NCBI GenBank assembly: GCA_026986435.1
Contig: JALSOP010000037.1
Location: forward strand, 1-55,076
Source: Desulfurococcales archaeon
GTDB taxonomy: Archaea > Thermoproteota > Thermoprotei_A > Sulfolobales > NBVN01
Direction: 5' to 3'
Length of the DNA: 55,076 bases
Below, one piece after another: positions 5,759-48,660 of the stretch; the first letter of the stretch is position 1, and each line of letters begins with the position of its first letter. Under the pieces are notes generated by a model. It had not been told where the DNA came from, made no database searches, and saw only the letters and a list, made by a program, of their open reading frames with translations. The position numbers and the translations under genes were made by a program.

Positions 5759-5786
5759 ACCATTAGAAACGTGTGGAGAGGGTTAT

Positions 5787-6185
5787 TTAACCGTTGATTG
5801 GCTCGCCAACTGTGTAGGATGAGCGGTCCGCGTAACCGACCCTGTACCTGGTCGGGTTGAGTTCCTCCATGATGACCTCGAGTGCCTTCCAGGGGTCGCT
5901 GGCGTCCCCGCAGGTGTAGATGTCTACGGTGGCGTAGTCGTACTCTGACCACGTGTGTATTGCAAGGTGCGACTCATTCACGAGGACTATCACCGAGACC
6001 CCTCCCTTTATGCCCCCGAAGCTCCAGGCATGCACATCAATGATCGTCATGTTAGCCTCCTTAGCGGCCCTCACGGCAAGGTTTCTGATGTATTCTAGGT
6101 TAGTCAGCTTCTCCCTACCTATGCCATACAGATTGGCGAACACGTGCCTACCGATGACGTATGGGTCGACGGCTTCCTTGGTCAT
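5787..6185 (-). CDS. Pyruvoyl-dependent arginine decarboxylase proenzyme (crenarchaeal AdoMetDC-like paralog)
   Basis: ESH cleavage motif, HTW, YTCG; AWSFGG.KGGVS and YADRSS ends match the crenarchaeal ArgDC branch rather than SpeD. Confidence 0.8.
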   Translation of the reverse strand: MTKEAVDPYVIGRHVFANLYGIGREKLTNLEYIRNLAVRAAKEANMTIIDVHAWSFGGIKGGVSVIVLVNESHLAIHTWSEYDYATVDIYTCGDASDPWKALEVIMEELNPTRYRVGYADRSSYTVGEPING

Positions 6186-11760: not shown

Positions 11761-13614
11761 TTGCGGTTACTAACGATCCATGCCGAGAAATTCTGGTTCA
11801 AGGCTAGGGAGAAGGCTCTCAAGGACGCCGAGGAACTCGTTGGTGTGCCGGGCGAGGCGAGGTCGGAGAACGCGCTCGTCGTCTTCATAAGCGTTGAGGA
11901 AGGGGACGCCAAGGGCGGCAAGGAGTTTCTGGAGCAGGTAGCGAGGAACATAGCTGAGATAGCGGAGAACGTCAAGGCGGAAACCGTAGTGCTCTACCCG
12001 TACGCGCACCTATCCAGCAGGCTCGCGCCCCCCTTCGAGGCAATGGAGGTTATGAAGTCACTGGAGGAAGCGGTTAAGTCTGTTTTCAAGGGTAAGGTGC
12101 TGAGGGCTCCCTTCGGGTGGTATAAGGCCTTCGAAATCAAGTGCTTGGGTCACCCACTCTCCGAGCTCTCCAGGGAGCTTAAGCCGGGCGCCGTAAAGCG
12201 TGTCGCGATAGAGAAGGAGTACTTCATACTGACCCCGGATGGCGGCCTCTACAGGCCGGAGGAGTACAAGTTCAAGGAGGGTGAGGAGGGGTTGAAGATA
12301 CTCGTTGATAAGGAGTACTTCAAGAAGGAGCTACCGGGGGGCAAGCCCAGGATAGTCGAGATCTGCAGGAAATTCGGCTTCGAGTGGGAGCCGATGTCCG
12401 ACGCTGGCCACATGAGGTACGGCCCCCACGCAACCACGATACTCGACGCAGTCATGGAGTACTCCTGGAAGGTCGCAAAACGCGTCGGGTTCCCAGTATT
12501 TAGGGTTAGGGGCACTAACATGTTCAACCTAAAGTTCCGCCCGGTGAGGGAGCATGCTGAACTCTTCGGCGACAGACTCTACGAGCTCAGGACAGACACC
12601 GGGACGATGGTCATGAGGTACGCAGCGTGCCACCAGCAGTTCGCGATGATAAAGGACTGGATAATCAGCTACAGAGACCTCCCCTTCGGCGCCTTCGAGG
12701 TAGCGGACAGCTACAGGTACGAGCAGAGCGGCGAGGTCATGCTGTGCTTCAGGTTGAGGAAGTTCTTCATGCCGGACCTCCACGTATTCAACAGGGACCT
12801 GGAGCAGGCCATGGAGACCGCGAAGAGGGTTCAGGAGGTGATACTCGAGGAGGTAGCTAAGGTCGGGCAGGACTACTGGGCTATCTATAACGTCACCCGA
12901 GACTTCTTCGATGAGCACAGAGACTACATCATAGAGCTGATAAGGAGGGAGGGGAGGCCCGCCCTCATAGAGGTGTTGCCAGCAGGGATCTATTACTGGG
13001 TCCTCAACATCGAGTATAACATAATCGACGTACTTGGGAGGCCGAGGGAGATAGCCACATTCCAGATAGACATCGGTAACGCCAAAAGGTTCGGCATAAG
13101 GTACGTTGATGAGGAGGGCAACGAGAGATACCCCGTGATAATACACACGGCGCTGATAGGCGGTGTCGAGAGGTATATATACATGGTGTTCGACGCAGCT
13201 GTTAAGCAGGAAGCTAGTGGGAAGACCCCGACGATACCGGTGTGGCTCGCCCCGATACAGGTGAGGGTCATACCCGTAAGCAGGAACCACCTCAGCTATG
13301 CCGAGGAGGTGCTTCAGAAGCTTAAGGAGGAGGGGGTACGCGCCGACCTAGATGACAGGGACCTAGGCCTTGGCAAGAAGATCAGGGAGGCGGGTATCGA
13401 GTGGATCCCATACATAGTGGTGGTTGGTGACAGGGAGGTGAGCACGGGAACTGTGAACGTGAGGATCCGCGGCACCAGGGAGCAGGTATCCATGAAGGTT
13501 GACGACCTCATCGAGAGAATTAAGAAGGATGTGAGGGGCTACCCGCGGGTCGACTCAGCCTTACCCGACCACCTCTCCAGGCGCCCGACCCTCCACTACC
13601 TCCGCGGCCTGTAA
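11761..13614 (+). CDS. thrS: Threonine--tRNA ligase (archaeal type, fused N-terminal editing domain)
   Basis: YPYAHLSS and APFGWYKAF editing domain; RYAACHQQF, RYEQSGE, RLRKFFMPDLH, IIHTA..GGVER, WLAPIQVRVIP. Confidence 0.96.
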   Translation: MRLLTIHAEKFWFKAREKALKDAEELVGVPGEARSENALVVFISVEEGDAKGGKEFLEQVARNIAEIAENVKAETVVLYPYAHLSSRLAPPFEAMEVMKSLEEAVKSVFKGKVLRAPFGWYKAFEIKCLGHPLSELSRELKPGAVKRVAIEKEYFILTPDGGLYRPEEYKFKEGEEGLKILVDKEYFKKELPGGKPRIVEICRKFGFEWEPMSDAGHMRYGPHATTILDAVMEYSWKVAKRVGFPVFRVRGTNMFNLKFRPVREHAELFGDRLYELRTDTGTMVMRYAACHQQFAMIKDWIISYRDLPFGAFEVADSYRYEQSGEVMLCFRLRKFFMPDLHVFNRDLEQAMETAKRVQEVILEEVAKVGQDYWAIYNVTRDFFDEHRDYIIELIRREGRPALIEVLPAGIYYWVLNIEYNIIDVLGRPREIATFQIDIGNAKRFGIRYVDEEGNERYPVIIHTALIGGVERYIYMVFDAAVKQEASGKTPTIPVWLAPIQVRVIPVSRNHLSYAEEVLQKLKEEGVRADLDDRDLGLGKKIREAGIEWIPYIVVVGDREVSTGTVNVRIRGTREQVSMKVDDLIERIKKDVRGYPRVDSALPDHLSRRPTLHYLRGL

Positions 13615-16033: not shown

Positions 16034-17068
16034 ATGAAACATTTAGTAGCGGATCTCACGGGTAAAGACTTAATCACGACCCAGGACTGGAGCGTTGAGG
16101 AACTCAGGCTCGCCATAGAACTTGCAAAGGACCTGAAGAGGCGGTACGTACATTACGGAATAGAGGGTATACCGAAGATACTGGATAGGAAGACGTTCTT
16201 CATGCTCTTCTACGCCCCCTCCACCAGGACCAGGGCTGCCTTCGAGGCTGCGATGACCTACCTCGGCGGCCACGCCCAGTACATCGAGGCCAGGATGACC
16301 AGGATGGGTGAGGGTGAGAAGGTCAAGGACGTAGTGACTATGTACGAGAGATACGGGCAGGGCCTCGGCATAAGGATACTTGATAAGGCGATAGACTTCA
16401 AGCACGGCGTTGGCAACGCCATCATAAGAGAGGCCGCCAAGCACATCAGCATACCCGTCATCAACATGGCTGACGACCAGTTCCACCCCACGCAGGGACT
16501 CGCCGACTACATGACCTTCGAGGAGGTCTTCCCGAACCCGAAGGGCAAGAAATACGTCATCATGTGGGCGTACTCCCCGCACGTCAGGGGGCCGTGCAGC
16601 GTCAACGAGGACCTCCTCCTCTTCACGAGGATGGGTGTTGACGTGACCGTGGTCTACCCGCCGGAGTTCGAGCTATACCCGGACATCGTGGAGATGGCTA
16701 AGAAGAACGCTGAAGCGAGTGGCGCTCACCTCGAATTCAGCAACGACTACAAGGAGGCACTGAGCGGCGCCCACGCCGTCTTCCCGAGGAACTGGGCGAC
16801 CAGGCAGCTCCAAGAGCTGGGGTACAGCAAGTTCGCTGAGCAGGAGCTACAGATATACGAGAAGTACAAAGACTGGAAGGTCACTAAGGACCTTATGGAC
16901 CTCATGGACAAGAGCGGTGTTCTGATGCACGTCATGCCCATAATGAGGGGCTACGAGGCCGACGACGAGGTCGTAGACTCACCTAGGTCCGTGCTCTACG
17001 AGCAGGCCGAGAACGGACTCTGGACCAAGGCCGCGGTCCTCGCCCTAACCATGGCCAACATAAGGTGA
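16034..17068 (+). CDS. Carbamoyltransferase of the AOTCase/YgeW (knotted) clade, copy A
   Basis: STRT carbamoyl-P motif, HPTQ, WAYSP loop, FPRNW, HVMP in place of HCLP, EQAENGL. Confidence 0.85.
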   Translation: MKHLVADLTGKDLITTQDWSVEELRLAIELAKDLKRRYVHYGIEGIPKILDRKTFFMLFYAPSTRTRAAFEAAMTYLGGHAQYIEARMTRMGEGEKVKDVVTMYERYGQGLGIRILDKAIDFKHGVGNAIIREAAKHISIPVINMADDQFHPTQGLADYMTFEEVFPNPKGKKYVIMWAYSPHVRGPCSVNEDLLLFTRMGVDVTVVYPPEFELYPDIVEMAKKNAEASGAHLEFSNDYKEALSGAHAVFPRNWATRQLQELGYSKFAEQELQIYEKYKDWKVTKDLMDLMDKSGVLMHVMPIMRGYEADDEVVDSPRSVLYEQAENGLWTKAAVLALTMANIR

Positions 17069-17196
17069 GCGGAATCTTAACATAGATGTGCATAAATGAT
17101 AGGCAAACACAACATAATTTTCTTAACCACCTAAACCAGGCCGCATTAGACTCTCTTTTTAAAAAGCCGACCAATCATTAAGATGAGGTCCTAACC

Positions 17197-18267
17197 ATGG
17201 GACTTCCTTGGTATGTTGGGTACTTCGAGGGTAAGCACTGGCTAACTAACATTGACTACACGCAGGATGACATAAGGAAGGTTATAGAGGCAGCCCTTGA
17301 TCTGAAAAGGAAGTTCAGGAGCCGGGTACCGACCCCCTACCTTAAGGGCAAGACGCTCTTCATGCTGTTCTACAACAGGTCGCTGAGAACCAGAAACAGT
17401 TTCGAGGCCGGCATGTTCCAGCTAGGTGGCCACGCCCACTTCCTCTCCCCGAACGATGTCTACACGCCGACCCTGCCAGAGGACATGGAGCCCTACAAGA
17501 CCGAGGCTATCAGGGACGTGGCCAGGGTGCTCAGCAGGTACGGCGACGGCATAGCCATAAGAATCTACGGTGACGCCGCCAAGTGGCACATTGGCAGGGG
17601 CCACAGGGTCATCGAGGAATTCGCTAAGTGGGCCGAGATACCCGTGCTCAACATGGAGGACGACGTCTACCACCCGTTCCAGGCCCTCGCAGATATTATG
17701 GCGGTCCTGGAGGTGTTGCCAAAGATACAGGGCAAGAAGTTCGTCGTCTCCTACGCCTATAGCGGCGGCCTAAAGCCTCTCGCCGTCCCGCAGAGCGTGA
17801 CCCTAATAGCAGCGATGTTTGGTGCTGAGGTCGTACTGGCTCACCCACCGGGCTTCGAGCTCCAAGACCACATAATCCAGAAGGCTAAGGAGCTCGCCGA
17901 CCAGTACGGCGGCAGCTTCACCATAACCAACAACATGGAGGAGGCCTTCGAGGGCGCCGCCGTGGTCTACCCGAAGGCCTGGTCGCCGAAGGGCTTCTTC
18001 CCGCCGTACAACAGCACTGTGGACAAGGAGGGCGCTAAGGAGTACCAGAAGAAGTTCAAGGACTGGATAGTCACCATGGACCTGCTCGAGAAGGCTGGCA
18101 AGCCGTACTATATGCACTGTGGCCCTGCAGACAGGGGACAGGAGGTCACTGACGAGGTACTCGACAGCTACGAGAGGAGCCTTTACTTCCAGGAGGCGGA
18201 GAACAGGCTCCACGTCCAGAAGGCCGTAATGGCCATGGTCATGGGCTCCAGGTTCCAAGAGTTTTAA
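17197..18267 (+). CDS. Carbamoyltransferase of the AOTCase/YgeW clade, copy B
   Basis: SLRT, HPFQALAD, YAYSGGLKPLAVPQS (cf. YgeW WAYSPSYGKPLSVPQ), VYPKAW, HCGPADRG, EAENRLH. Confidence 0.85.
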   Translation: MGLPWYVGYFEGKHWLTNIDYTQDDIRKVIEAALDLKRKFRSRVPTPYLKGKTLFMLFYNRSLRTRNSFEAGMFQLGGHAHFLSPNDVYTPTLPEDMEPYKTEAIRDVARVLSRYGDGIAIRIYGDAAKWHIGRGHRVIEEFAKWAEIPVLNMEDDVYHPFQALADIMAVLEVLPKIQGKKFVVSYAYSGGLKPLAVPQSVTLIAAMFGAEVVLAHPPGFELQDHIIQKAKELADQYGGSFTITNNMEEAFEGAAVVYPKAWSPKGFFPPYNSTVDKEGAKEYQKKFKDWIVTMDLLEKAGKPYYMHCGPADRGQEVTDEVLDSYERSLYFQEAENRLHVQKAVMAMVMGSRFQEF

Positions 18268-18327
18268 ATCTAAACCTAAAACCCATCCAAACAATCATAA
18301 GAGATCACGAAACTCCGGTGATCGATC

Positions 18328-19293
18328 ATGGCTGAGAGGAATGAGAAATACGTATTAATCGCTCTGGGAGGCAATGCTTTCCAGACCAAAGGTGAACCAG
18401 GTACTACAGAGAATTATTGGAAGAACGCGTACAAGGCGGCTGAGACTATAGTAAAGATTGTCAAAGAAGGCTACAAAGTGGCGATCACCCATGGAAACGG
18501 CCCCCAGGTCGGTACCATACTTGAGTGGATGGAGAGGTCAAAGGACAAGATACCTCCACTCGCGATGGATATAGCCGGGGCAATGACGCAAGGCTGGCTC
18601 GGCTACCTACTGATGCAGTCGATAGGTAACCTCCTCATTAAGGAGGGTATTAAGGACCACATTAAGGGAGTGGTTGCCATAGTAAATCAGGTGCTCGTAA
18701 GCAAGGACGACCCCGCATGGCAGAACCCGACGAAGTACGTGGGCAGCTACTACACTGAGGAGGAGGCGAAGCGCCTGGCCAAGGAGAAGGGCTGGGTAAT
18801 CAAGCCTGACCCAAGAGGCGGCTGGAGGAGGGTTGTGCCCTCTCCCGACCCCAAGCAGAACATTGAGGTAGAAGCTGTGAAGAAGCTGCTTGATGAGGGC
18901 TGGATAGTGATAGCATCGGGAGGCGGCGGGATACCGGTGATCAAGGAGGAGGACGGCACCCTAAAGGGTGTTGAGGCGGTGATCGACAAGGACCTAGCTG
19001 GCGAAGTCCTAGCGACTGAGCTGGGTGTCGGCCAGTTTATAATCCTTACCGACGTTGACGGTGTCTATCTGAACTTCAAGCAGCCCAACCAGAAGAAGCT
19101 CGACGTGGTGAAGGCCTCAGAGCTCGAGAAGTACTACAAGGAGGGCCACTTCAAGCCAGGCTCCATGGGCCCGAAGGTACTGGCAGCGATCAGGTTCGTG
19201 AGGCACGGCGGTCTCAGGGCGGCCATCGGCCACCTAAAGCAGGGCTATGAAGTCGTTAAGGGCCAGGCAGGAACTACGATACTCCCAGACTAA
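18328..19293 (+). CDS. arcC: Carbamate kinase
   Basis: IALGGNA, THGNGPQVG, PTKYVG, WRRVVPSP, GGGGIPV, EAVIDKD, GSMGPKV. Confidence 0.96.
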   Translation: MAERNEKYVLIALGGNAFQTKGEPGTTENYWKNAYKAAETIVKIVKEGYKVAITHGNGPQVGTILEWMERSKDKIPPLAMDIAGAMTQGWLGYLLMQSIGNLLIKEGIKDHIKGVVAIVNQVLVSKDDPAWQNPTKYVGSYYTEEEAKRLAKEKGWVIKPDPRGGWRRVVPSPDPKQNIEVEAVKKLLDEGWIVIASGGGGIPVIKEEDGTLKGVEAVIDKDLAGEVLATELGVGQFIILTDVDGVYLNFKQPNQKKLDVVKASELEKYYKEGHFKPGSMGPKVLAAIRFVRHGGLRAAIGHLKQGYEVVKGQAGTTILPD

Positions 19294-19508
19294 GCGTAAT
19301 AGGATACAGATTTTTATCTTAACATTTTTATTAAATTTTCCGTTAGCTTGTATACAATATCCTCTAATTCTAATTTTAATCTAAGTTATCTTAACTAAAT
19401 AATGTACACTTAAAGCCAATAATGCCTACCCTGCGTCTCGCTTATTTGCTTTCCTTAATTAACGGTTTATTAAAAGGTATGTCGGTGATAGATTTCTAGG
19501 AGAGGATT

Positions 19509-20897
19509 ATGAAAGATAAAGTTGACATACTCATAAATAACGCCCTCGTTGTCACTATGAACAGAAACAGAGATGTAATACCTAGAGGTTTTGTCGCCAT
19601 AAGAGATGGAAAAATAGTCGATGTTGGGGTCGGTGACGGTACCAGCAAGTACGAGTCTGAGGAGATTGTTGAGGGTCGGCGCACTGTTGTAACACCTGGA
19701 TTCGTGTGCGCTCACACACACTTTTACGGTGTGCTCCTCGCAGCATCCACGTGGTTTGGGTTGATTGAGCCGCCTACTGACTTTCAGCAGAATCTTCAGA
19801 GGATATGGTGGGCTCTTGACGAGAACATAACGTACGATGACATATACGTAGCTTCGCTGATGGGCTCCATAATGTTTGCAAGGACAGGCACAACATTCTT
19901 CAAAGACATGAATTCCTCGCCAAACTCGGTGACAAACGGACTAGACTACATAAGGAAAGGAGCGGAGGAGGTCGGTTTAAGGGGTTTTGCAGGCTTCTGC
20001 GCTACGCAGAGGAGGAGCCCTGAGGAGGGGTTCAAAATAATCGCAGAGAACGAGAGATTCGTTAGGGAGACGCATTCTGATCCCAAGGCAAGGGTTAAGG
20101 GATTCTTCGCTGTACACGCGTCCTTTACTGTGACTGATGAAGTGCTGACAAAGACAAAGGAGCTAGCGGACAAGTACGGAACAATTTATGCGATGCACGT
20201 TGAAGAGGGCCTTATAGACGTGTACCACAATATCGAGAGATACGGTAAAAGACCAATAGAAAGGCTGAGGGACATAGGCTTCCTCTCTGATAGATTCGTG
20301 GCCGTGCATGTTGTGCAGGCGATTGATGAAGAACTTAAAATTATTAAGGAGTACGGGGTAAATGTGGCACATAATGCTATGAGCAATATGATAAACGGTG
20401 TCGGTGTTCCACGCATTCAGAAGATGCTGGAACTCGGCATAAATGTTGCCATAGGTAATGATGGTTATGTATTCGATGTATTCGATAACATGAGGTCAAC
20501 ATACCTTGTGCATAAGGTCGTGAATAAAGATCCGAGGATCCTAGCCCCTCTAGACGTAATTGAGATGGCGACAATCAACGCAGCCAAGGCCCTGCACATG
20601 GACGACAGAATAGGGTCTATAGAGCCGGGTAAGGACGCTGACATAGTCATCATAAGACCAGAGTTTGTGCCAACACCTCTGAACGAGAAGACAGTCTACG
20701 GTCATATAGTGAATACGTTCACTGGCCAGGACGTGTGGGGCGTCCTTGTGGAGGGTAGGTGGGTGACTAAGGAGAGGAAGTTCATGACAGTGGATGTCGA
20801 GGAGGCTATGGAAAAGGCTCATAAGACAATAGAGAGACTCTGGGACAGGATGGCGTCCATGGAGGAAAAGTACAAGATAGAGTACCTCCGCGCATGA
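19509..20897 (+). CDS. ssnA: SsnA-like metal-dependent amidohydrolase
   Basis: PGFVCAHTHFYG, DF.QNL.RIWWALD, HASFTV, MHVEEG, HN..SNM.NGVG, IGNDG match the SsnA subfamily pattern. Confidence 0.8.
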   Translation: MKDKVDILINNALVVTMNRNRDVIPRGFVAIRDGKIVDVGVGDGTSKYESEEIVEGRRTVVTPGFVCAHTHFYGVLLAASTWFGLIEPPTDFQQNLQRIWWALDENITYDDIYVASLMGSIMFARTGTTFFKDMNSSPNSVTNGLDYIRKGAEEVGLRGFAGFCATQRRSPEEGFKIIAENERFVRETHSDPKARVKGFFAVHASFTVTDEVLTKTKELADKYGTIYAMHVEEGLIDVYHNIERYGKRPIERLRDIGFLSDRFVAVHVVQAIDEELKIIKEYGVNVAHNAMSNMINGVGVPRIQKMLELGINVAIGNDGYVFDVFDNMRSTYLVHKVVNKDPRILAPLDVIEMATINAAKALHMDDRIGSIEPGKDADIVIIRPEFVPTPLNEKTVYGHIVNTFTGQDVWGVLVEGRWVTKERKFMTVDVEEAMEKAHKTIERLWDRMASMEEKYKIEYLRA

Positions 20898-20903
20898 GAT
20901 TTT

Positions 20904-22139
20904 GTGGGGGTGAATAAGGTGGCGGTGGATCTAACCGTAGAGATAGCGGGCCTAAAGTTCAAGAACCCGATCCTAAACTCCGCATGCCCTATATCAAGGG
21001 ATGGCCCAGCCATGGAGAGGCTGGCCGAGGCCGGCATAGGAGGCTTAGTGAGCAAGACCATAGGTGTCGTCGCTGCCAAGGTGCCGAGGCCTCACATGGG
21101 CGTGGTGAACAGAGGCATAATTGACATGGTCGTGCCGACCTACAGAGGAGGGCAGTTCCAGACAAGAGTCAACAAAATAAGGGGTGCGTTCTACGGACTC
21201 CTCAACGCAGAGCTATGGACAGATCTTCCGCCGGAGCAGTGGTTCGAGAAGGAGTTACCCTATGCTAGGAAAGTTGCCGACAAGTTCGGAATACCCCTGA
21301 TTGCCAGTATCGGCTATAAGCCTCACGAGCTGAAGGAACTAGGGCCAAAGGCTGTTAAGGCCGGTGCCGAGGGCATAGAGTTCTCTACCCACTACCTCGG
21401 CTACGACTACAGGCCAGTAATTGAGTCGGCAAAGGCACTGAGGGAGGCTGTGGATGTGCCAATATTCCCGAAGCTCTCACCACACATCTTCGGACTGACC
21501 GAGATGGTCAAAGAGCTTGAGCAGGTCGGTGTAGACGGTATAGTGGCTATAAATACCGTTGGTCCAGCCCTTCACATAGACATTGAGACTGGCAGGCCGT
21601 ATATGGGTGGTCCCTTTGGCCACGGCTGGCTCTCGGGCCCCGCGATAAAGCCCATAGGTGTAGCAATAGTAGCGGAGATAGCGAAGAACACTAAGCTCCC
21701 CGTGATCGGTGTCGGAGGCGTCACTACGCCTGAAGACGTGATCGAGTACATAATGGCCGGTGCCTCGGCGGTGCAAGTCTGTACATCGGTTCTCGTAGAA
21801 GGTCTTGGGGTGATAAAGAAGCTTGTCGAGGGGGTTGAGAAGTGGCTGAAGGAGCACGGCTACTCATCGATAGAGGACATAAAGGGTAAGGCCCTGAAGT
21901 ACCTGACAAAGGAGCCAGGGTGGTGGGAGATAAAGTCGCCGAAGGTTAACGAGGAACTCTGTATCTCGTGCGGGCTCTGTGAGCAGGTCTGTGACTACGA
22001 CGCTGTCCACCTCGTCAACAAGGGCGGTAAACTACTGCCCGTGGTGAACGAGCAGAAGTGCTACGGCTGTGGTCTCTGTACGACGGCCTGCCCGACCAGG
22101 GCGATACACTTCCCGGACGAGTACTGGCCCAAGATATGA
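20904..22139 (+). CDS. DHODH/PreA-like FMN oxidoreductase with C-terminal 2x[4Fe-4S] domain
   Basis: GLKFKNP, LVSKT, LLNAEL, PKLSP, AINT, WLSGPAIKP, GVGG, AVQVCT; CISCGLCEQVC and CYGCGLCTTACP. Confidence 0.85.
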   Translation: MGVNKVAVDLTVEIAGLKFKNPILNSACPISRDGPAMERLAEAGIGGLVSKTIGVVAAKVPRPHMGVVNRGIIDMVVPTYRGGQFQTRVNKIRGAFYGLLNAELWTDLPPEQWFEKELPYARKVADKFGIPLIASIGYKPHELKELGPKAVKAGAEGIEFSTHYLGYDYRPVIESAKALREAVDVPIFPKLSPHIFGLTEMVKELEQVGVDGIVAINTVGPALHIDIETGRPYMGGPFGHGWLSGPAIKPIGVAIVAEIAKNTKLPVIGVGGVTTPEDVIEYIMAGASAVQVCTSVLVEGLGVIKKLVEGVEKWLKEHGYSSIEDIKGKALKYLTKEPGWWEIKSPKVNEELCISCGLCEQVCDYDAVHLVNKGGKLLPVVNEQKCYGCGLCTTACPTRAIHFPDEYWPKI

Positions 22140-22226
22140 GGCAAGTGAGTGAACGTTTGTTTTTTACAATTGCAAGTTAATCTTCTTACATAACCTCACC
22201 CGTCTATTACCTCCGAGGTACCGGGG

Positions 22227-23504
22227 TTGAGTAGGTTCATTAAGTACCTAAAATGTTCCAGGTGCGGCAAGATCTACCCGTACGAGGATGCCCGGATAAC
22301 GTGTGAAAAGAATGACCTAGGTAGGCTCGACATACACTACGATTACGAAGCGATGAAGGAGGTCGTGACAAAAGAGTACCTGGCCAAGATACCGCTTGAG
22401 AGTATGTGGAAGTACAAAGACCTCATCCCGCCGAAGGACGAGAGCAAGATCGTTAGCCTGGGCGAGGGCGCTACCCCGCTGATAAAGGCAAAGAGGCTGG
22501 CGGAGGAGCTCGGCCTGAAGAACCTCTACCTGAAGGACGAGACCAGGAACCCTACGGGCTCGTTTAAGGACAGGGGCATGTCGGTGGCGGTGAGCGTTGC
22601 TAAGGAGTTCGGCTTTACTAAGGCAGTAACAGCGTCCAGCGGTAATGCCGCCGCTGCACTAGCGGCTTATGGTGCTAGGGCCGGGATCGACGTCATAGCA
22701 TTCGTGATAGAGCAGGCTGGCTACGGCAAGATAGCCCAGCTCCTCTTCTACGGAGCTAAGGTGTTCAGGGTGCGCGGACTCGGTAGGGAGGACCCGACCG
22801 TCAAGCTGATGAGGATGGTGCACGAGAGGTTCGGCTTCTACATGGCCCCGAGTTTCGGCCCCTTCAACCCGTACCAGATCGAGGGACCCAAGACGATCTC
22901 ATACGAGATCGTGGAGCAGCTGGGCTGGAGGAGCCCTGACTGGGTCTTCGTCCCTGTTGGGGCGGCATCACTCCTCACAGGCGTCTGGAAGGGGTTCAGG
23001 GACTTTAGGGAGCTAGGCATAATACCTGACCTACCCCACCTCTTCGCTGTTCAATCAACGGGTAACCCGCCCTTTGTGAGGGCGTTCAAGGAAGGGCAGG
23101 ACCCATTCAACATAAAGCCTTGGGATCATCCTCACACGATAGCGTGGGGGCTGGAGGACCCGTACCCCTGGGACGGTGATGCAGGCATAGCGGCTCTTAA
23201 GGAAACCAAGGGTGACGCCGAGGAGGTCCCAGACGAACTAATACTGAAGGCAATGAAGCTCCTGGCCTCCAGGGAGGGTGTGTTCGCGGAGCCCTCCGGC
23301 GCGGCCGGCCTCGCTGGCCTCATGGCCGCCCTCGAGGATGGGAGGGTTGATAAGGATGAGGAGGTAGTGGTTCTCGTCACTGGCCACGGGCTCAAAGACC
23401 CAGATGTGGTTAAGGAGAGCGCGGGTGATGCTCCGACGATCAGTGCTGACCTCGAGGAGTTCAAGTTCGTTCTGAGCAAGGCCTACGGTATCAAGATTCA
23501 GTGA
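22227..23504 (+). CDS. Threonine-synthase-like PLP enzyme (fold type II)
   Basis: N-terminal CxxC, SLGEGATPL, NPTGSFKDRG (PLP Lys), ASSGN, EPSGAA, TGHGLKD. Confidence 0.85.
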   Translation: MSRFIKYLKCSRCGKIYPYEDARITCEKNDLGRLDIHYDYEAMKEVVTKEYLAKIPLESMWKYKDLIPPKDESKIVSLGEGATPLIKAKRLAEELGLKNLYLKDETRNPTGSFKDRGMSVAVSVAKEFGFTKAVTASSGNAAAALAAYGARAGIDVIAFVIEQAGYGKIAQLLFYGAKVFRVRGLGREDPTVKLMRMVHERFGFYMAPSFGPFNPYQIEGPKTISYEIVEQLGWRSPDWVFVPVGAASLLTGVWKGFRDFRELGIIPDLPHLFAVQSTGNPPFVRAFKEGQDPFNIKPWDHPHTIAWGLEDPYPWDGDAGIAALKETKGDAEEVPDELILKAMKLLASREGVFAEPSGAAGLAGLMAALEDGRVDKDEEVVVLVTGHGLKDPDVVKESAGDAPTISADLEEFKFVLSKAYGIKIQ

Positions 23505-23599: not shown

Positions 23600-24589
23600 A
23601 TGAGGACTTTGGTGAAGGGCAATGACCACGGAGTAATATCGGTTGGCCTAGTGGATATAGATGGTGTCGAGGACGGAAGGATCCGCATAGTCACCCACGT
23701 CCACTCGGACCACACAGTGGGCTTAAGTAAGAGCACCAACATATCAGAGAAAATCGTTGCTACCCCTCTCACGCTCGAGTGGTTGCCTGTGCTTGGCCAT
23801 AAACTACCGCGACATAAGCTACTACCCCTTGATTACGGTGAGGAGGTTAGGGTGGGTGACCTGAAAATAACGTTCTATGAGTCAGTACACATTCCCGGCA
23901 CGGCGCAGGTGATGATAGAGTTTCCAGACGGTATAACACTTGCTTACACAAGCGATTTCAAAAAGCCTGGGGAGGGTACCCCAATACTCAGCCCGGACGT
24001 GCTGGTCATCGACGCCGTCTATGGGAGGCCGAACTACGTGAGGGAGTTCGATGACATTATCGACACGATCCTCGCCGACGCGGTGAGAGAGCTGCTGGCA
24101 ACCGGGCCCGTGTACCTCTACGGGTATCATGGCAAAATACAGGAGGTAATGGAGGTGCTTCGTAGGGAGGGTGTCGACGCCCCCTTCATACTCCCGTACA
24201 AGCAGTACCAGCTGGCGAGAATAGCTGAGAGGCACGGTCACAGGTTCGGTGACTATGTTCTCCAGGGAACGGATGAGGCTGAGGACATAATCAGGGATGG
24301 GTGGTTCATCTACTTCGCCCACGTCAACTCAAAGAGGAGACTGAATGGTGTTATGGGTAACCACCTTATCTTGAGCGGATGGGAATTCAGCAGACCTTAC
24401 AAGAGGATAGGGCGGAATAAGTGGCTCGTTGCCTTCAGCGATCACGCGGACTTCACGGGGCTCCTTAGGTATGTGGAGGAGAGCAGGCCTAAGCTATTGC
24501 TGGTGAACTTGCCGAGGAGCACGGGAGGGATAGAATTTGCTGAATACGTCAGGAAAAAATTTGGGATAGAGGCCCTACTACTCCCCTAA
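23600..24589 (+). CDS. Metallo-beta-lactamase/beta-CASP-like nuclease (COG1236-like)
   Basis: THVHSDH, HIPG, YTSDF, DAVYG, FSDHADF. Confidence 0.85.
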   Translation: MRTLVKGNDHGVISVGLVDIDGVEDGRIRIVTHVHSDHTVGLSKSTNISEKIVATPLTLEWLPVLGHKLPRHKLLPLDYGEEVRVGDLKITFYESVHIPGTAQVMIEFPDGITLAYTSDFKKPGEGTPILSPDVLVIDAVYGRPNYVREFDDIIDTILADAVRELLATGPVYLYGYHGKIQEVMEVLRREGVDAPFILPYKQYQLARIAERHGHRFGDYVLQGTDEAEDIIRDGWFIYFAHVNSKRRLNGVMGNHLILSGWEFSRPYKRIGRNKWLVAFSDHADFTGLLRYVEESRPKLLLVNLPRSTGGIEFAEYVRKKFGIEALLLP

Positions 24590-25573
24590 CTCGGACTCCC
24601 TTAGCTCATAGGGTTCCTTGATGAAGGATTCAGTCAGCGTCAAGCCGTACTCCTCTAGTAGTATCAGGATTGCTGCCTGCGGAGGAATGACCCCCTTCTC
24701 GGTTATTATTGCGTCTATGTACTCCGGCGGCGTCACGTCGAACACCGGGTTGTAGACCTTAACCTCTGGGTTCCTGTTGAGCCACTCCTCCGTCACTATC
24801 TCGAGTGGTGACCTGACCTCAATCGGTACCAGCTCCCCTATCACGGTCTGGGGGCTGAATTTGTAGGTCTCGCTGGCGACATACATACGTACCCTGGCCT
24901 CCTTAGCAGCCAGGGCAACCATAGATGTGCCGATCTTGTTAATGACAGCACCATTGGCAGCTATTGTGTCAGCGCCGACAACCACCTTGTTCACTTTCTT
25001 CATAAAGTACCTCACTGAAGAGTCCGGTATGAGGATGACGTCAAGGCCTGCATCCGCTAGGGCCTTGGCAGTAATTAGGCCCTGCATCTTGGGCCTCGTC
25101 TCCTTCACGTACACCCTGTGCACCTTGCCCTGGTTATGGGCCGTAGCGATGACCGACACGGCGGCGGTGCTGTGGCAATGTGTCATCACTACATCGCCGT
25201 TTTCCAATCTTTTAGCACCAAGTTCCCCGATTATTCTTACAGCGTTAAGTGAGTACTCGATGAACTCTTCAGCAGCGTTAACGACTGCGCGGACAGCCTC
25301 CTCGAGGGATGATGCCCCGGATCTTTTTAGTCTATTCATAACGTAAGCGACGGCGTTGGGTAGCGAGACAGCTGTTGGTCTGGCTGACCTCACGAACTCA
25401 GCTATTCTTTCCATGTACGCCATGAAGTCTTTCAGGTTCCTTCCCTTGAACTCCTCGGCAGCTATGGCCAGTGCCCTGGCCCCTGCCCTGGCTATTCTGC
25501 CAGCGCCCCTGATCCTCATTTCCTTTATGTCGAGCCAGATCTTCCTTACACCCTCGGGTACATACTCGCTCAT
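24578..25573 (-). CDS. Ribose-1,5-bisphosphate isomerase (eIF2B-like family)
   Basis: MRIRGAGRIAR, RPTAVSLPNA, catalytic THCHS, ETRP, VGADTI, NKIGT, ETYKF, FDVTPPEY. Confidence 0.9.
   Translation of the reverse strand: MSEYVPEGVRKIWLDIKEMRIRGAGRIARAGARALAIAAEEFKGRNLKDFMAYMERIAEFVRSARPTAVSLPNAVAYVMNRLKRSGASSLEEAVRAVVNAAEEFIEYSLNAVRIIGELGAKRLENGDVVMTHCHSTAAVSVIATAHNQGKVHRVYVKETRPKMQGLITAKALADAGLDVILIPDSSVRYFMKKVNKVVVGADTIAANGAVINKIGTSMVALAAKEARVRMYVASETYKFSPQTVIGELVPIEVRSPLEIVTEEWLNRNPEVKVYNPVFDVTPPEYIDAIITEKGVIPPQAAILILLEEYGLTLTESFIKEPYELRESELGE
24698..24742. repeat. 45-bp exact direct repeat, copy 1 (copy 2 at 25681-25725)
   Basis: ctcggttattattgcgtctatgtactccggcggcgtcacgtcgaa is identical in both eIF2B-like paralogs. 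Confidence 0.9.
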
Positions 25574-26562
25574 AGGGACCGCACCTCCTTGAGAAGTTCC
25601 TTAATGCTCTTCACTCTTGGCGGAAGCCCATACTTCTCCTTAATGAGTATAGGTACGGCCTGTGGGGCTATGAGCCCGTGCTCGGTTATTATTGCGTCTA
25701 TGTACTCCGGCGGCGTCACGTCGAATATTGGCTCCCTAACAATCACCTTTCCAGTGAGTTCCTCCATTCTATTCCGAGGGATTATGAGCTCGGGATCGTT
25801 CAGGACTATGCCCTCAATCAGTTCTCCGAAGACTGTCTCTATACCGAACTTGTAGGTGCCAGCAGCTACTAGCACCCTGGTCCTCGCCTCTTTCGCTGCC
25901 AGGGCTATTGCTGATGTACCTGCCTTATTGACTATCGCGCCATTCGCGGCTACGGCGTCGGCACCGACTATGACCTTGCTTATCTTTTTCATCACGAACC
26001 TTACGGCAGAGTCAACGATGAGTGTTGTGTCAATTCCCATCTTAGCTATTTTTTCAGCGGCAACCAAGCCCTCTCCTAGGGGTCTCGACTCGGTGACGTA
26101 CACACTGAAGTTCTTACCCTCTCTTAAGGCTTCCTCAAATATTCTTATGACTGATGTGCTGTACGAGTGAGTAAGGATGACGTCACCATTAACTATTCTT
26201 TTTGCACCAACCCTAGCCACGATTTTCTTTGTGTGCTCTATCTCCTCATTTATCTTGTCTATTATTGCGGCGACCTTCTCAATGGCTGCCTCGACACCAC
26301 TTCTCTTAGCCTCATTCACGAACCCGATTAGGAACTCCCTGAGAAGATTCGACATAACCATGGACGTGGGCCTTGCATCTATTATCGTCTCTACCCAGCT
26401 AGGGAGGTACTTGACGAAATCCCTCCCACATACCTTGACAACGTCTGAGAGGAATGAGAAGGCAGCGTAGGCTGCCTCCGTGGACCCGAGTATTCTGCCA
26501 TGCCTGAGGTCGGAAGCTAGGGCATCGACTCTAGTAGCTATTTCCCTACACTGTTGTGACAT
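25570..26562 (-). CDS. eIF2B/R15P-isomerase-like paralog lacking the catalytic Cys
   Basis: RPTS, THSYS, ESRP, VGADAV, NKAGT, TYKF, FDVTPPEY. Confidence 0.85.
   Translation of the reverse strand: MSQQCREIATRVDALASDLRHGRILGSTEAAYAAFSFLSDVVKVCGRDFVKYLPSWVETIIDARPTSMVMSNLLREFLIGFVNEAKRSGVEAAIEKVAAIIDKINEEIEHTKKIVARVGAKRIVNGDVILTHSYSTSVIRIFEEALREGKNFSVYVTESRPLGEGLVAAEKIAKMGIDTTLIVDSAVRFVMKKISKVIVGADAVAANGAIVNKAGTSAIALAAKEARTRVLVAAGTYKFGIETVFGELIEGIVLNDPELIIPRNRMEELTGKVIVREPIFDVTPPEYIDAIITEHGLIAPQAVPILIKEKYGLPPRVKSIKELLKEVRSL
25681..25725. repeat. 45-bp exact direct repeat, copy 2
   Basis: Same sequence as 24698-24742. Confidence 0.9.
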
Positions 26563-26642: not shown

Positions 26643-27614
26643 CTAGATCACCGTGGGTTCAGCGAGTCTCCTGCATTCGCTCGCGTACTCCATGAGTTCG
26701 GTGTACCTTGGCGAACCCCTCGGACCCTCTCTCGAAGCGTTGATTGTGGCAGCACATGTTGCCAGAACCATGGCGTCGATGAAGTCGTGGCCCACAGATA
26801 CGGCAGCTGTGAACACGCCCACGTACGCATCTCCGCAACCGCTTGTTGACCTAGTCCTTAGCCCGAGCCTCTCTGTGGGTATGCCACGCACTATCAGGAC
26901 ACGGTCCTCCATGAAGAGTCTCGAACCTTTGATTCCTTCCTTGCTGAGGACGCGCAGTCCCGGATTTATCTGCCTTAACCTTTCCACCGCTTCTTCAACG
27001 CTGGTTGCCCGTGTCATGGAGAGGAGTTCGTCCTTATTTGGTGCGATTATGTCGACACGGCGGATAATCCCATCCAGCTTATCTATTCCTTCATGTGAGA
27101 GTGAGCCAGGATCCCACACCACCATAGCACCCCTCTCCCTAGCCCAACCAGCAATCGCTTCAGCAACCTCTATAGGCGGGTTCATTATTAGTACGGCAGC
27201 TGGTTTAACATCTGAATTAAGCAGCGGTCGTACGTCGGCATCATTGAGCGCCTCATTCGCTCCGTAGTAGCTGTAGATGGCGGTTTCCCCGGATGGATTA
27301 ACGGCAACGAATGCCTGCCCGGATTCGACGCCATCCTTGGTAACGATAAATGACGTGTCTATTCCTTCACTTCTCAAGGCATCGATGTGTTGCCTACCGA
27401 CCTCGTCGTTGCCTATTGCCCCGACCATGATCACTGTCCCGCGCACTCCCAGAAATCGTGCGGCAGCCGTAGCGGCGTTACCGCCTGATCCTCCCAGGTA
27501 CCTCGCAAGCGCCCTAACCCTAACTTTAGGTGGAGCGAACCTATTGACGAAAAGCATGGTGTCGTAGTTTAGTGAGCCGGCCACTATGACCTTAATCTTT
27601 TTATTCCTATCCAT
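26643..27614 (-). CDS. PfkB/ribokinase family carbohydrate kinase
   Basis: GSLNYD, GGSGGNAA, GAIGNDEVG, WDPG, PNKDE, TSGCGDAY. Confidence 0.9.
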   Translation of the reverse strand: MDRNKKIKVIVAGSLNYDTMLFVNRFAPPKVRVRALARYLGGSGGNAATAAARFLGVRGTVIMVGAIGNDEVGRQHIDALRSEGIDTSFIVTKDGVESGQAFVAVNPSGETAIYSYYGANEALNDADVRPLLNSDVKPAAVLIMNPPIEVAEAIAGWARERGAMVVWDPGSLSHEGIDKLDGIIRRVDIIAPNKDELLSMTRATSVEEAVERLRQINPGLRVLSKEGIKGSRLFMEDRVLIVRGIPTERLGLRTRSTSGCGDAYVGVFTAAVSVGHDFIDAMVLATCAATINASREGPRGSPRYTELMEYASECRRLAEPTVI

Positions 27615-30735: not shown

Positions 30736-32592
30736 TCAGTCCCTTAGATCAACTAAGTCTCTCAGCCCCTCGTACACGAAGCCTAGGCCGAGCCTCTCCA
30801 GAGTTGACTTCTTCGGCGCGCCTCTCTCGTCCCAGCCTCTTAGCTCGTAGTACTTGCTCAGCATCCTGTCGTAGCCGTCCCTGTCGAGCTTGGCGCCAGC
30901 CAGCGGCCCCTTGGTTAGGGGCTCCGTGAACCACCTCTCAGGCGGGTAGTCCATGTGCCTGCCCCAACCCCTTCCCTCGGCGGCGTATTCCCTCACCCAG
31001 AACGCCCTAATGAGTGTGTAGACTCTCTCCGCCAACTTATGGAGGTCGTCCCATGTGAAGCTCACTCCTGTCGCCGCTTTCAAGAACTTCGGGTAGTAGT
31101 CGAGGTTGAGGCCGAGCTCCACCCACGGCAGCCTGCACGTTACGAGGGACTCGAATACTGCTCCCCTAACGTTCTGCATCCAAACGAGATTCTCTACCTT
31201 CTCATCGGTGTACTTATCCCTACCCATCTTTATCTCCAGCGATATGAACCATGCATCCTTGTGGTGGGCCCCTATGGAGCTCGTGCCGTAGGCCAGAGCC
31301 ATGCCTGGTGCGGCGTGGCAGTCGTATGCCGAGATCTCCAGGCCCTTAACCTGCATGGCGAAGGCCATGGCGCCGTTCCCGAGCTTCTCGGCGGCGGCCC
31401 TGGTGCCCTCCGCCATCAGGTTCCCGAGTTCCCCTCTCCTGTACGCTATGTCCTCCGTCAACTGTACGGCGGCGTCGAAGTCGCCCCACTCAATCCCGTC
31501 CTTTATGAGGCCTTTCTCGGTAGCCTCCATGGCGAAGGCTATTGAGGAGCCGAGGCTTATTGTATCTAGTCCCAGGTCGTCCGCGAGTTTATTCAGGTGG
31601 GACACCTTATTGAGGTCCCCTATACCTATGTTGGAGCCGAGCATCGCGACGTTCTCGTAGTCGAGCTCTGCCCTGGCCTTAGTGCTGCCTACCTGGTACT
31701 CGACAATGTTTCCGCATGGCATGTTGCAGTTGGGACACCCCTTCTGCGCCACCTTCATCTTCTCCATGGTGTAGCCGTCGATCCCGCTGGCGAAGTCGTA
31801 GACGCCCTCACGGAAGTTGTAAGTGGGTAGCACGGAGTTCTTGTTAGACCACTCAATGGTCATCATGGTGCCCTGCCTGATCCAGAAGTCGTAGCCATCC
31901 GCCTCTTTCACCACCCTGTAGGCCTCAGCCCCAAGCCGTACGAGCTCGGCCTGGTCAGCGGGCTTCGGAAGCTCCTTGCACCCCTTAATCACGATGGTCT
32001 TCAGCTTCTTTGAGCCCATCACCGCACCCATGCCTGGCCTGCCGCCCGAGCGGCCGAACTCGCTTATAACTGTGGCGAACTTGACCAAGTTCTCCCCTGC
32101 CGGGCCTATGTACAGGGCTCCGGCGTTCTTTCCGTACTCGGCGTAGAGCTTCGGCTCGAGGTCATGGACACGCATACCCCATATGTCCTCCGCGGGCTCG
32201 ATGGATGCCTTACCGCACTCAACAACCAGCTTTACGGGCTTGTCGGAAGCGCCCGTAATCACTAGAGCATCATGTCCCGCCTTCCTAAGCTCCACAGCTG
32301 CCCTAGTACCTATGTTGCCGTCGCCGTATCCGTGAGTGAGGGGTGATTTGGCGGCGATCACCATCTTACCCGAGGAGGGCAGGGGGTATCCCGTGAGCGG
32401 CCCCACAGCGAATATGAGCACGTTGTCAGGGCTCAGCGGATCAGTCCCTGGTTTCACGAGGTCCCAGAGGAGCCTGATCGCCAGGCCCCTGCCGCCAAGG
32501 TAGTTCAGCAAGGTTTCCTTGTCGAGACTTACCTCGGTGATCTTTCTTGTTGTCAGGTTCACTAGGAGATATTTCCCATTCCATCCAAACAT
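30736..32592 (-). CDS. Tungsten-dependent aldehyde:ferredoxin oxidoreductase, FOR-like
   Basis: YLGGRGL, KSPLT.GYGDGNIG, GRPGMGAVMGSKKLK, CPNCNMPC, DYENVAMLG, DDLGLDTIS, AHHKDAW. Confidence 0.93.
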   Translation of the reverse strand: MFGWNGKYLLVNLTTRKITEVSLDKETLLNYLGGRGLAIRLLWDLVKPGTDPLSPDNVLIFAVGPLTGYPLPSSGKMVIAAKSPLTHGYGDGNIGTRAAVELRKAGHDALVITGASDKPVKLVVECGKASIEPAEDIWGMRVHDLEPKLYAEYGKNAGALYIGPAGENLVKFATVISEFGRSGGRPGMGAVMGSKKLKTIVIKGCKELPKPADQAELVRLGAEAYRVVKEADGYDFWIRQGTMMTIEWSNKNSVLPTYNFREGVYDFASGIDGYTMEKMKVAQKGCPNCNMPCGNIVEYQVGSTKARAELDYENVAMLGSNIGIGDLNKVSHLNKLADDLGLDTISLGSSIAFAMEATEKGLIKDGIEWGDFDAAVQLTEDIAYRRGELGNLMAEGTRAAAEKLGNGAMAFAMQVKGLEISAYDCHAAPGMALAYGTSSIGAHHKDAWFISLEIKMGRDKYTDEKVENLVWMQNVRGAVFESLVTCRLPWVELGLNLDYYPKFLKAATGVSFTWDDLHKLAERVYTLIRAFWVREYAAEGRGWGRHMDYPPERWFTEPLTKGPLAGAKLDRDGYDRMLSKYYELRGWDERGAPKKSTLERLGLGFVYEGLRDLVDLRD

Positions 32593-47867: not shown

Positions 47868-47872
47868 TTTGA

Positions 47873-48631: not shown

Positions 48632-48660
48632 CAAGTTGGAGGTGATCAAGACTGAATGAG

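Follow-up and report, generated by a model that had tools for sequence, protein, structure and literature searches.

A conserved archaeal gene block that may ferment purines with two unusual carbamoyltransferases

Why would an archaeon keep two carbamoyltransferases and a carbamate kinase (CK) next to an SsnA-like amidohydrolase, a ferredoxin-type reductase and a relative of threonine synthase (ThrC)? The six genes lie together on the forward strand, at positions 16034-23504 of a 55,076-nucleotide stretch of DNA (the window). The window is contig C37 of the archaeal genome G000 (1.54 Mb, 168 contigs, 93.6% complete), whose nearest named relatives are uncultured Desulfurococcales. An earlier note on the window had proposed that the block is an archaeal counterpart of the bacterial anaerobic purine locus, with a ferredoxin-type reductase standing in for YgfK, a second carbamoyltransferase for YgeY and a ThrC-fold enzyme for DpaL. 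Its six co-oriented genes were recovered at exactly its coordinates by open reading frame (ORF) listing, Pfam and NCBIfam. On the evidence below it is somewhat probable that the block would supply the core enzymes of an archaeal form of the reductive 2,8-dioxopurine pathway, with both ureido groups released as carbamoyl phosphate.

The evidence that carries this reading is comparative. SsnA-like orthologs with 60-95% identity were found in 15 of 41 related genomes, and 14 of these block loci were retrieved: in 12 the full set of six appears in the window's order, and contig ends truncate the remaining 2. The flanks too are conserved inside the family, hence synteny there proves little. A genome from another family (G026) has the six genes between different flanks, and there an additional gene separates the reductase from the ThrC-like gene. 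Relatives of the second carbamoyltransferase, CT2, which surpasses the other members of the set in both conservation and spread, were found at 58-99% identity in Desulfurococcales, Caldarchaeum, Nitrososphaeria, Hadarchaeota, Bathyarchaeia and the Thor-, Hermod- and Promethearchaeota, Asgard archaea included. That search gave 145 confirmed stretches, from which 80 loci were kept. After 18 with flanks like those of the window and 16 of under 8 kb had been removed, 46 CT2-anchored loci from at least six archaeal lineages remained, and their ORFs were clustered.

The recurrent neighbours of CT2 in these 46 loci include the block's own families and several purine-related ones. ThrC-like genes occur in 26, SsnA-type genes in 21, CK in 18, PreA-type reductases in 14 and a CysK-like gene in 12. 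Dihydroorotase/allantoinase/hydantoinase-like genes and the large subunit of xanthine dehydrogenase (XDH) occur in 8 each, the XDH 2Fe-2S subunit and a PnrA/Bmp-type binding protein with its ABC partners in 7 each, and adenine deaminase and a SagB/nitroreductase-like gene in 6 each. Gene order varies widely. Caldarchaeum has CT2, CysK-like, ThrC-like and CK, with CT1 (the first carbamoyltransferase), the large and small XDH subunits, the FAD subunit and SsnA on the opposite strand; one Nitrososphaerales locus has two XDH sets; Asgard loci hold the reductase, an aldehyde:ferredoxin oxidoreductase (AOR)-like gene with an Fe-S protein, two SsnA-type genes, CT2, CT1 and the ThrC-like gene. The same families are thus re-clustered in varied orders across phyla, as functional modules usually are, and the block is not a chance neighbourhood. 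The conservation of the module is well supported; its chemistry is unproven. By this comparison the central idea of the earlier note is largely borne out.

Gain and loss tell the same story. G012 belongs to the genus of block-positive G022 and has the same flanks. At the same chromosomal position it has jointly lost five genes (CT1, CT2, SsnA-like, reductase and ThrC-like), and CK alone is left between the HIT and beta-lactamase-fold genes. Genes elsewhere in the genome come and go with the block too. An ortholog of a hydantoinase-like gene was found in 15 of 15 block-positive relatives against 0 of 26 block-negative ones, and the ThrC-like gene itself in 14 of 15 against 0 of 26, the missing case being a truncated contig. 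The corresponding counts are 15 of 15 against 1 of 26 for a deaminase-type paralog of the SsnA-like protein, 13 of 15 against 1 of 26 for the CysK-like gene, and 12 of 15 against 3 of 26 for an XDH of the type found on contig C152, two of these last 3 being fragments in incomplete genomes.

The earlier note had placed HyuA and XDH outside the window, and a genome search located HyuA-like and XDH genes on other contigs. An XDH operon with FAD, 2Fe-2S and Mo subunits lies at C152:2-3866, and C98 encodes another large subunit of XDH. The hydantoinase-like gene (C85:10156-11505) encodes a protein 33% identical to E. coli HyuA that scores 327.7 on TIGR02033, under the cut-off of 393.25. An adenine deaminase lies on C141 (TIGR01178, 526.6 against a cut-off of 472.5), a PnrA-type nucleoside ABC transporter on C10, and the large subunit of RuBisCO at C16:11399-12286. 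The deaminase paralog is in the window itself; its best model is 5'-deoxyadenosine deaminase (377.9, under 522), it is 32% identical to the SsnA-like protein, and elsewhere it is clustered with adenine deaminase and a hydantoinase-like gene (L108). It is probably an aminopurine deaminase that feeds the pathway.

Another reading is a ureide fermentation of the allantoin or oxalurate type. Here XDH would make urate, an allantoinase-like amidohydrolase would open allantoin, and the transferases would split allantoate, ureidoglycine or oxalurate. The hydantoinase-like protein does score as an allantoinase (277.5, under 357.85), and ureidoglycine and oxamate transcarbamylases exist (PMC4016543, PMC4581275, PMC11326118). 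This route would leave the reductase-SsnA pair without a role, however, and no genes for uricase, HIU hydrolase, OHCU decarboxylase or AllFGH-type proteins are among the annotated neighbours, the genome not having been searched by family for them. We regard it as highly improbable.

A further XDH locus was seen in relatives, in which another hydantoinase-like gene is flanked by two more large subunits of XDH type, 35% and 47% identical to that of C152. Genomes that have the block and genomes that do not both carry it, for example at G002:C14:508798-514927 and G014:C20:7393-14035. Its copies in G000 lie at C98:29-2338 and C80:7962-9296, the C80 copy with one in-frame TGA in the match. This locus may belong to another nucleobase pathway.

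What are the two carbamoyltransferases? Automatic annotation names them 'ornithine carbamoyltransferase', and on the model for ornithine carbamoyltransferase (OTCase; TIGR00658, cut-off 280.85) CT1 scores 197.1 and CT2 235.1 bits. The best curated model for both is N-acetylornithine carbamoyltransferase (AOTCase; NF003384), at 201.8 bits for CT1 and 267.8 for CT2, both under its cut-off of 288. The YgeW models TIGR03316 and NF005538 (cut-offs 500 and 453) give 129.2 and 139.1 for CT1 and 141.9 and 141.0 for CT2, and the search of the 93.6%-complete genome gave no match to a YgeW model over cut-off. CT1 has the motifs STRTR, HPTQ and HVMP, and CT2 has SLRTR, HPFQ and HCGP; the OTCase motif DxxxSMG is in neither sequence. 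By BLASTP, CT1 is 31% and CT2 28% identical to E. coli YgeW.

In a tree of 80 carbamoyltransferases, with few references and without AOTCase, SOTCase or PTCase, CT2 falls in a clade of 47 sequences (support 1.0) to which E. coli YgeW is sister (0.962), and CT1 in a clade of 24 (0.989). CT1, CT2 and YgeW are grouped together (0.755), apart from the canonical OTCase clade that holds this genome's own OTCase.

The nearest solved structure tells more about CT2. It aligns end to end with AOTCase from Xanthomonas campestris, without gaps through the extended 120s loop and the proline-rich loop, and it keeps the carbamoyl-phosphate-binding motifs SxRT and HPxQ. The AlphaFold 2 (AF2) model of CT2 (pLDDT 92.6) has that enzyme, 3kzk, as its top match in the Protein Data Bank (TM-score 0.87, root-mean-square deviation 1.9 A), and the YgeW-type structure 2yfk appears only at rank 46 among its matches; CT2 is probably of the knotted type. 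CT2 differs from AOTCase in other ways. A transcarbamylase review (PMC4581275) defines AOTCase by Glu92, Asn185 and Lys302, and assigns to YgeW a chain of about 396 residues, additional helices at the termini and a lengthened 240s loop. In the alignment, which covers CT2 only, the signature E92/N185/K302 is replaced by Thr102/Pro194/Glu316; HxLP is changed to HCGP in CT2 and HVMP in CT1; and at 344 and 356 residues CT1 and CT2 are shorter than YgeW. The context of CT2 is catabolic as for YgeW, with CK 60 bp 3' of it, and not arginine biosynthesis. With scores under the curated cut-offs, the AOTCase signature replaced in CT2 and no DxxxSMG motif, CT1 and CT2 are, as judged from sequence, probable new members of the knotted-type group distinct from YgeW, AOTCase and OTCase. 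CT1 co-occurs with the ThrC-like gene in the CT2-anchored loci.

The SsnA-like protein and the reductase would act on the ring. The SsnA-like protein is an amidohydrolase of the deaminase/chlorohydrolase group. It scores 311.5 and 333.8 on the SsnA models TIGR03314 and NF005540 (PRK07203), whose cut-offs are 455.5 and 444, and the next family reaches 265.6. It is 28% identical to E. coli SsnA and 22% to GuaD (BLASTP). In a tree whose SsnA and GuaD references come from E. coli only, E. coli SsnA lies inside the SsnA-like clade (18 tips, support 1.0), and the deaminase paralog and GuaD lie outside it. The reductase gene is 6 bp from the SsnA-like gene, and ygfK and ssnA likewise adjoin in E. coli; the reductase is also beside SsnA-like genes in loci L108, L122, L125, L133 and L137. 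It joins an FMN barrel (DHO_dh, PF01180) to a C-terminal 2x[4Fe-4S] part, without an FAD/NAD(P) domain. Compared by description, this is the architecture published for UacX of Clostridioides difficile: Li et al. (PMC12507026) describe UacX as a PydA-like enzyme without the FAD domain that takes the place of YgfK and probably receives its electrons from ferredoxin. The replacement of YgfK that the earlier note had suggested thus has a published bacterial precedent.

A rival reading is reductive pyrimidine degradation, instead of or besides that of purines, with the two transferases serving two substrates. In such a route the reductase would make dihydrouracil or dihydrothymine, an amidohydrolase would open the ring, and a carbamoyltransferase would replace beta-ureidopropionase, splitting 3-ureidopropionate or 3-ureidoisobutyrate with phosphate so that CK could make ATP. 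The best curated model of the reductase is indeed PreA, a dihydropyrimidine dehydrogenase subunit (NF006183, 210.2 bits, under 335), and its best solved relative is pig dihydropyrimidine dehydrogenase. The hydantoinase-like family also scores as dihydropyrimidinase. L122-type genomes have CT2-CK-SsnA-PreA without CT1 or ThrC nearby (no other module gene was found within about 9 kb of their ThrC-like gene, which is uninformative). The 3-ureido group of diureidopropionate is chemically that of 3-ureidopropionate, and one enzyme might take both. A pyrimidine route, however, gives no role to the co-occurring and co-varying XDH subunits, adenine deaminase, ThrC-like and CysK-like proteins. The ring opener beside the reductase is of the SsnA lineage and not of the dihydropyrimidinase family, and no annotated neighbour family is pyrimidine-specific, several recurring families being unannotated and four having no Pfam match. 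We consider pyrimidine degradation unlikely, and the two routes could run side by side. The earlier note had itself named pyrimidine and agmatine degradation as alternatives; agmatine is dealt with below, and a pyrimidine role could be played by the subset of reductase, SsnA-like protein, CT2 and CK.

The last gene of the block encodes a fold-type II pyridoxal 5'-phosphate (PLP) enzyme, and it is here that the automatic models and the residues disagree. The protein passes two threonine-synthase models, PRK08197 (344.7 against a cut-off of 303) and TIGR00260 (221.7 against 167.1). It shares with the solved threonine synthases 2zsj, 6cgq and 1uim the fold, the length of the catalytic part and the PLP-lysine motif SFKDR. 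Three other motifs are changed in 27 of 27 module proteins: ASTGNT becomes ASSGNA, NPxR[IL]EGQKT becomes NPYQxEG[PV]K with a 3-residue insert, and GN[AG]GN becomes G[AS][AG]xL. All three are intact in 3 of 3 solved enzymes and in 13 of 13 canonical ThrCs that could be extracted from 16 loci of relatives. The pocket that takes the phosphate of O-phosphohomoserine is, in our reading, lined by these motifs; if so, the ThrC-like enzyme would no longer bind a phosphate ester. As speculation, the altered pocket could hold a ureido group, ureidoalanine being about as long as phosphohomoserine. Its gene tracks the purine block, and not threonine biosynthesis, and adjoins carbamoyltransferase genes in 26 of the 46 loci.

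These observations also bear on the simplest explanation of the locus, a chance neighbourhood of biosynthetic genes: arginine-pathway transferases, PyrD and threonine synthase. The automatic transferase names agree with it, and so do the two ThrC models that the last protein passes, the more so as no canonical ThrC was found in the window's own incomplete assembly, where the ThrC-like protein is the sole one over the TIGR00260 cut-off. Canonical OTCase (C35:47591-48505, 421.7 bits against 280.85) and ATCase (C168:8571-9479, 315.3 against 236.95) are encoded elsewhere in the genome, however, and of the other 40 relatives 31 have a ThrC of canonical type (37-46% identity with the protein of the block), one of them belonging to the same genus. 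Together with the replaced motifs, and with genes that are gained and lost jointly and re-clustered in distant phyla, this makes chance grouping close to negligible. The earlier note's reading of the block as lacking a canonical OTCase holds good.

The ThrC-like enzyme has a competitor for its step. A CysK-like PLP gene is directly beside it in 12 of the 46 loci. In the window's genome this gene is split over the ends of contigs C123 and C31, and its neighbours there are an aminotransferase and phosphoenolpyruvate carboxylase, with no local support for a link. A search of the genome with the DpaL/YgeX model TIGR01747 gave no match at E <= 1e-5. With no DpaL found, the end step therefore would fall to the ThrC-like enzyme, the CysK-like enzyme, or both. 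The ThrC-fold enzyme that the earlier note put in the place of DpaL is thus one of two candidates, since the CysK-like paralog also tracks the block.

Protein families were assigned with Pfam and NCBIfam models against their curated cut-offs, and CK is the only one of the six block proteins that passes an equivalog cut-off for a fitting function (TIGR00746 arcC, 386.6 against 358.25 bits, full length). It is 41% identical to E. coli YqeA (BLASTP). Carbamate kinase converts carbamoyl phosphate and ADP to ATP, CO2 and NH3. The arginine and agmatine deiminase pathways have the same energy logic, from phosphorolysis of a ureido group to carbamoyl phosphate and on to ATP via CK. The block differs from them, as neither the scores nor the DxxxSMG motif mark CT1 and CT2 as OTCase or PTCase, and their partners are purine-related. 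Searches of the 93.6%-complete genome for arginine deiminase (PF02274) and agmatine deiminase (PF04371) gave nothing, and both pathways were rejected for that reason; the earlier note had likewise seen no arginine deiminase in the block.

A further alternative concerns the main product: it would be carbamoyl phosphate for biosynthesis, harvested from ureido compounds and used by the canonical ATCase and OTCase, or CK would be anabolic, and ATP would not be the point. CarB, the large subunit of carbamoyl-phosphate synthetase, was not found in the 93.6%-complete genome, and OTCase and ATCase are present. The G012 genome keeps CK without the other five genes, and therefore CK also has a role of its own. 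There is a precedent in Thermococcus kodakarensis, where carbamoyl phosphate comes from citrulline phosphorolysis and disruption of arcC has little effect (PMC13260591). This alternative alters the fate of the product, however, and not the nature of the pathway. CK is in the block or adjoins carbamoyltransferase genes in 18 of the 46 loci. Matches to CK were found in all 15 block-positive relatives and in 14 others; block-negative relatives, and the six relatives without any CK match, would need another source of carbamoyl phosphate. We judge a mainly biosynthetic purpose to be quite unlikely, but the carbamoyl phosphate may be used for biosynthesis alongside ATP formation.

What, then, would the whole route look like? 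Gene content, linkage, co-variation and family placement were observed, and from them we infer every reaction of the scheme that follows. Purine nucleosides would be imported by the PnrA-type transporter and then split. The ribose would be used via ribose-1,5-bisphosphate and RuBisCO, for which pentose bisphosphate genes lie beside the block. Adenine deaminase and the second deaminase would yield oxopurines, and the molybdenum XDH-type enzymes encoded on other contigs would set the oxidation state of the bases. The PreA/UacX-type reductase would dearomatise the purine ring reductively with a low-potential donor. The SsnA-like amidohydrolase would then open the six-membered ring of the reduced purine, and the hydantoinase-like amidohydrolase of C85 the five-membered ring, to give 2,3-diureidopropionate.

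CT2 and CT1 would remove both ureido groups by phosphorolysis, giving two carbamoyl phosphates; CT1 would use phosphate to split off one ureido group of 2,3-diureidopropionate, or the one left on the mono-ureido product. The best YgeY-family score in the genome (182.3) is under the cut-off of 321.5 and there are two transferases, and therefore both ureido groups may be kept as carbamoyl phosphate, from which CK would make up to two ATP. A second carbamoyltransferase in place of YgeY, as the earlier note had it, is accordingly plausible, and it is itself inferred. In the last step 2,3-diaminopropionate or 3-ureidoalanine would go to pyruvate and ammonia through the ThrC-like enzyme, the CysK-like enzyme or both, the ThrC-like enzyme carrying out a terminal beta-elimination on either substrate. 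A biosynthetic (reverse) direction of the whole module was set aside, its neighbours being importers and deaminases.

The bacterial 2,8-dioxopurine locus (E. coli xdhD-ygfM, ygfK, ssnA, hyuA, ygeW, yqeA, ygeY and ygeX; C. difficile UacX and UacY) links the same enzyme types in the genome: an XDH-family Mo enzyme, a flavo-Fe-S reductase adjoining an amidohydrolase of the SsnA lineage, a hydantoinase-group enzyme, a carbamoyltransferase of the knotted group with CK, and a fold-type II PLP enzyme last. In E. coli, YgeW releases carbamoyl phosphate from one ureido group and YgeY takes off the second by hydrolysis, whereas the archaeal set has two transferases of new clades, no YgeY over cut-off, and ThrC-like and CysK-like paralogs in place of DpaL. 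The archaeal genes are also spread over several loci, and the block is beside pentose-bisphosphate genes.

Several published accounts give context. UacX replaces YgfK, and YgeW with YqeA makes ATP (PMC12507026; bioRxiv 10.1101/2025.04.24.650524). Two accounts disagree on whether YgeW or YgeY acts first, and a commentary leaves the stereochemistry open, with D intermediates, and calls the pathway restricted to selected anaerobic bacteria (all PMC12990295). Barba et al. 2013 describe a dihydroorotate dehydrogenase-like clade, 'X1', that is genome-linked with hyuA, ygeW, ssnA, xdh and yqeA (PMC4016543). T. kodakarensis is described as using only the ribose of nucleosides, excreting the nucleobases and being unable to degrade them (PMC12628685). 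Its pentose bisphosphate pathway has counterparts in this genome, with the ribose-1,5-bisphosphate isomerase and the PfkB kinase encoded beside the block and a type III RuBisCO elsewhere, which suggests a pentose bisphosphate route for nucleoside ribose. The block differs in that it would add the base branch absent there. A search of open-access papers and preprints, supplements aside, yielded no account of the pathway in archaea, of transferases like CT1 and CT2 or of this ThrC-like paralog.

A number of observations weigh against the purine reading. Apart from CK, the block proteins fall below the YgeW, SsnA and PreA cut-offs, and the hydantoinase-like protein falls below the hydantoinase cut-off. 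The identities to E. coli enzymes are only 28-41%, which by sequence would make these proteins distant relatives and not orthologs, and the reductase and the ThrC-like protein have no BLASTP match to E. coli YgfK and YgeX respectively. The C152 XDH is 33% identical to E. coli XdhA and 29% to the urate-reducing XdhD; its type was not found in 3 of the 15 block-positive genomes, of which one is 95% complete, whereas 3 block-negative genomes do have it. The pathway needs only one PLP enzyme and here there are two, for which the open stereochemistry of the bacterial pathway might, by analogy, be a reason. The L122-type loci fit a substrate with one ureido group, such as a pyrimidine. Without CarB the carbamoyl phosphate may be for biosynthesis rather than ATP. 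References in the trees are few, and the 41 relatives are kin of uneven completeness, so that the counts reflect a few events of gain and loss and not independent trials. The archaeal counterpart proposed in the earlier note is supported by comparative evidence: the XDH, adenine deaminase, hydantoinase-like and PnrA-type neighbours, the co-variation, and the SsnA and YgeW trees.

The features of the window are collected in the table. Upstream of the block are threonyl-tRNA synthetase (ThrRS), RadA, a preflagellin-type peptidase and a HIT protein; downstream is a metallo-beta-lactamase-fold protein, followed by the opposite-strand ribose-1,5-bisphosphate isomerase, its paralog and the PfkB genes. 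The block's G+C content of 0.50-0.56 shows no compositional oddity. Low G+C stretches occur in the window at 4001-6000 and 46001-50000 (0.40-0.42, against about 0.53 elsewhere).

Features of the block and its surroundings in the window, with the basis for each assignment
Feature	Position	Strand	Basis
CT1, non-canonical carbamoyltransferase, 344 aa	16034-17068	+	OTCace_N and OTCace domains, own clade
CT2, AOTCase-like non-canonical carbamoyltransferase, 356 aa	17197-18267	+	OTCace_N and OTCace domains, AF2 model, tree
Carbamate kinase (CK), 321 aa	18328-19293	+	TIGR00746
SsnA-like amidohydrolase, 462 aa	19509-20897	+	PRK07203 best model, tree
PreA/PydA/UacX-type reductase, 411 aa	20904-22139	+	DHO_dh and two 4Fe-4S motifs
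ThrC-like fold-type II PLP enzyme, 425 aa, N-terminal Cys-rich stretch	22227-23504	+	PALP domain, ThrC models
Ribose-1,5-bisphosphate isomerase	24578-25573	-	TIGR00511, 398.6 > 314.1
Second IF-2B-family paralog of ribose-1,5-bisphosphate isomerase	25570-26562	-	TIGR00511, 249.2, under cut-off 314.1
PfkB sugar kinase	26643-27614	-	Protein under all cut-offs
Deaminase-type paralog of SsnA-like protein, 459 aa	34325-35704	+	Best model 5'-deoxyadenosine deaminase

The gaps between the block genes are 128, 60, 215, 6 and 87 bp, and therefore the genes are probably on more than one transcript. The upstream regions of block genes and unlinked partner genes were read for a common regulatory motif. The octamer ATCTTAAC has 4 copies in the window, 3 of them in intergenic gaps of the block (17074, 19316 and 19388), against an expected count of 1.69; 8 of 100 shuffles reached 4, and in the orthologous gaps of 10 relatives it is kept only in the same genus and one other genome. 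It was dropped as a shared motif. The element that does recur, 5' of the SsnA-like gene, is A/T-rich and resembles ACTTAAA; it is probably just a promoter. An Lrp/AsnC-family protein is a candidate regulator of the module: its gene lies 3' of ThrC-CT1-CT2(-CK) in L094, L095, L104, L121 and L152 (at about 11800-12700 in each; Desulfurococcales/Thermoproteota).

Other genes near module members were seen in passing. Just 5' of the deaminase paralog in the window is a xanthine-phosphoribosyltransferase-like gene (32699-33373, +; 64.8 bits, under 138), and near it is an AOR-like gene (30736-32592, -). AOR-like genes with an Fe-S protein also adjoin the reductase in Asgard loci L163-L170. In L122, L125, L126 and L137 (Desulfurococcales), a radical-SAM protein and proteins without a Pfam match are encoded between CT2 and CK or just upstream of CT2, with a canonical OTCase, an MFS transporter and a SagB/nitroreductase-like gene upstream. 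Locus L123 (QMNG01000129.1, 2.6 kb) is a CT2-CK fragment, 75% identical to archaeal genes, in a bin of candidate division Kazan; its bacterial label is likely a binning error, the contig being so short.

The bacterial anaerobic route for purines was worked out only in 2025, in gut bacteria. The broader claim, which we put forward tentatively and at somewhat short of an even chance, is that many archaea, from hyperthermophilic Desulfurococcales to Bathyarchaeia and Asgard, ferment purines, gaining two carbamoyl phosphates and at most two ATP per purine with two new transferase families and a re-tooled ThrC paralog, possibly with a CysK-like partner. If this is true, CT1 and CT2 would each define a new carbamoyltransferase specificity, the threonine-synthase family would gain a new reaction, and both the name 'ornithine carbamoyltransferase' and the threonine-synthase model assignment would need correcting in these genomes. 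Cells without carbamoyl-phosphate synthetase would have a source of carbamoyl phosphate. The base branch of archaeal nucleoside catabolism would be filled and, with the pentose bisphosphate pathway, whole nucleosides would be an energy substrate for archaea. Anaerobic archaea that scavenge DNA and RNA in hot springs and sediments, Asgard archaea included, would then have a new form of substrate-level phosphorylation.

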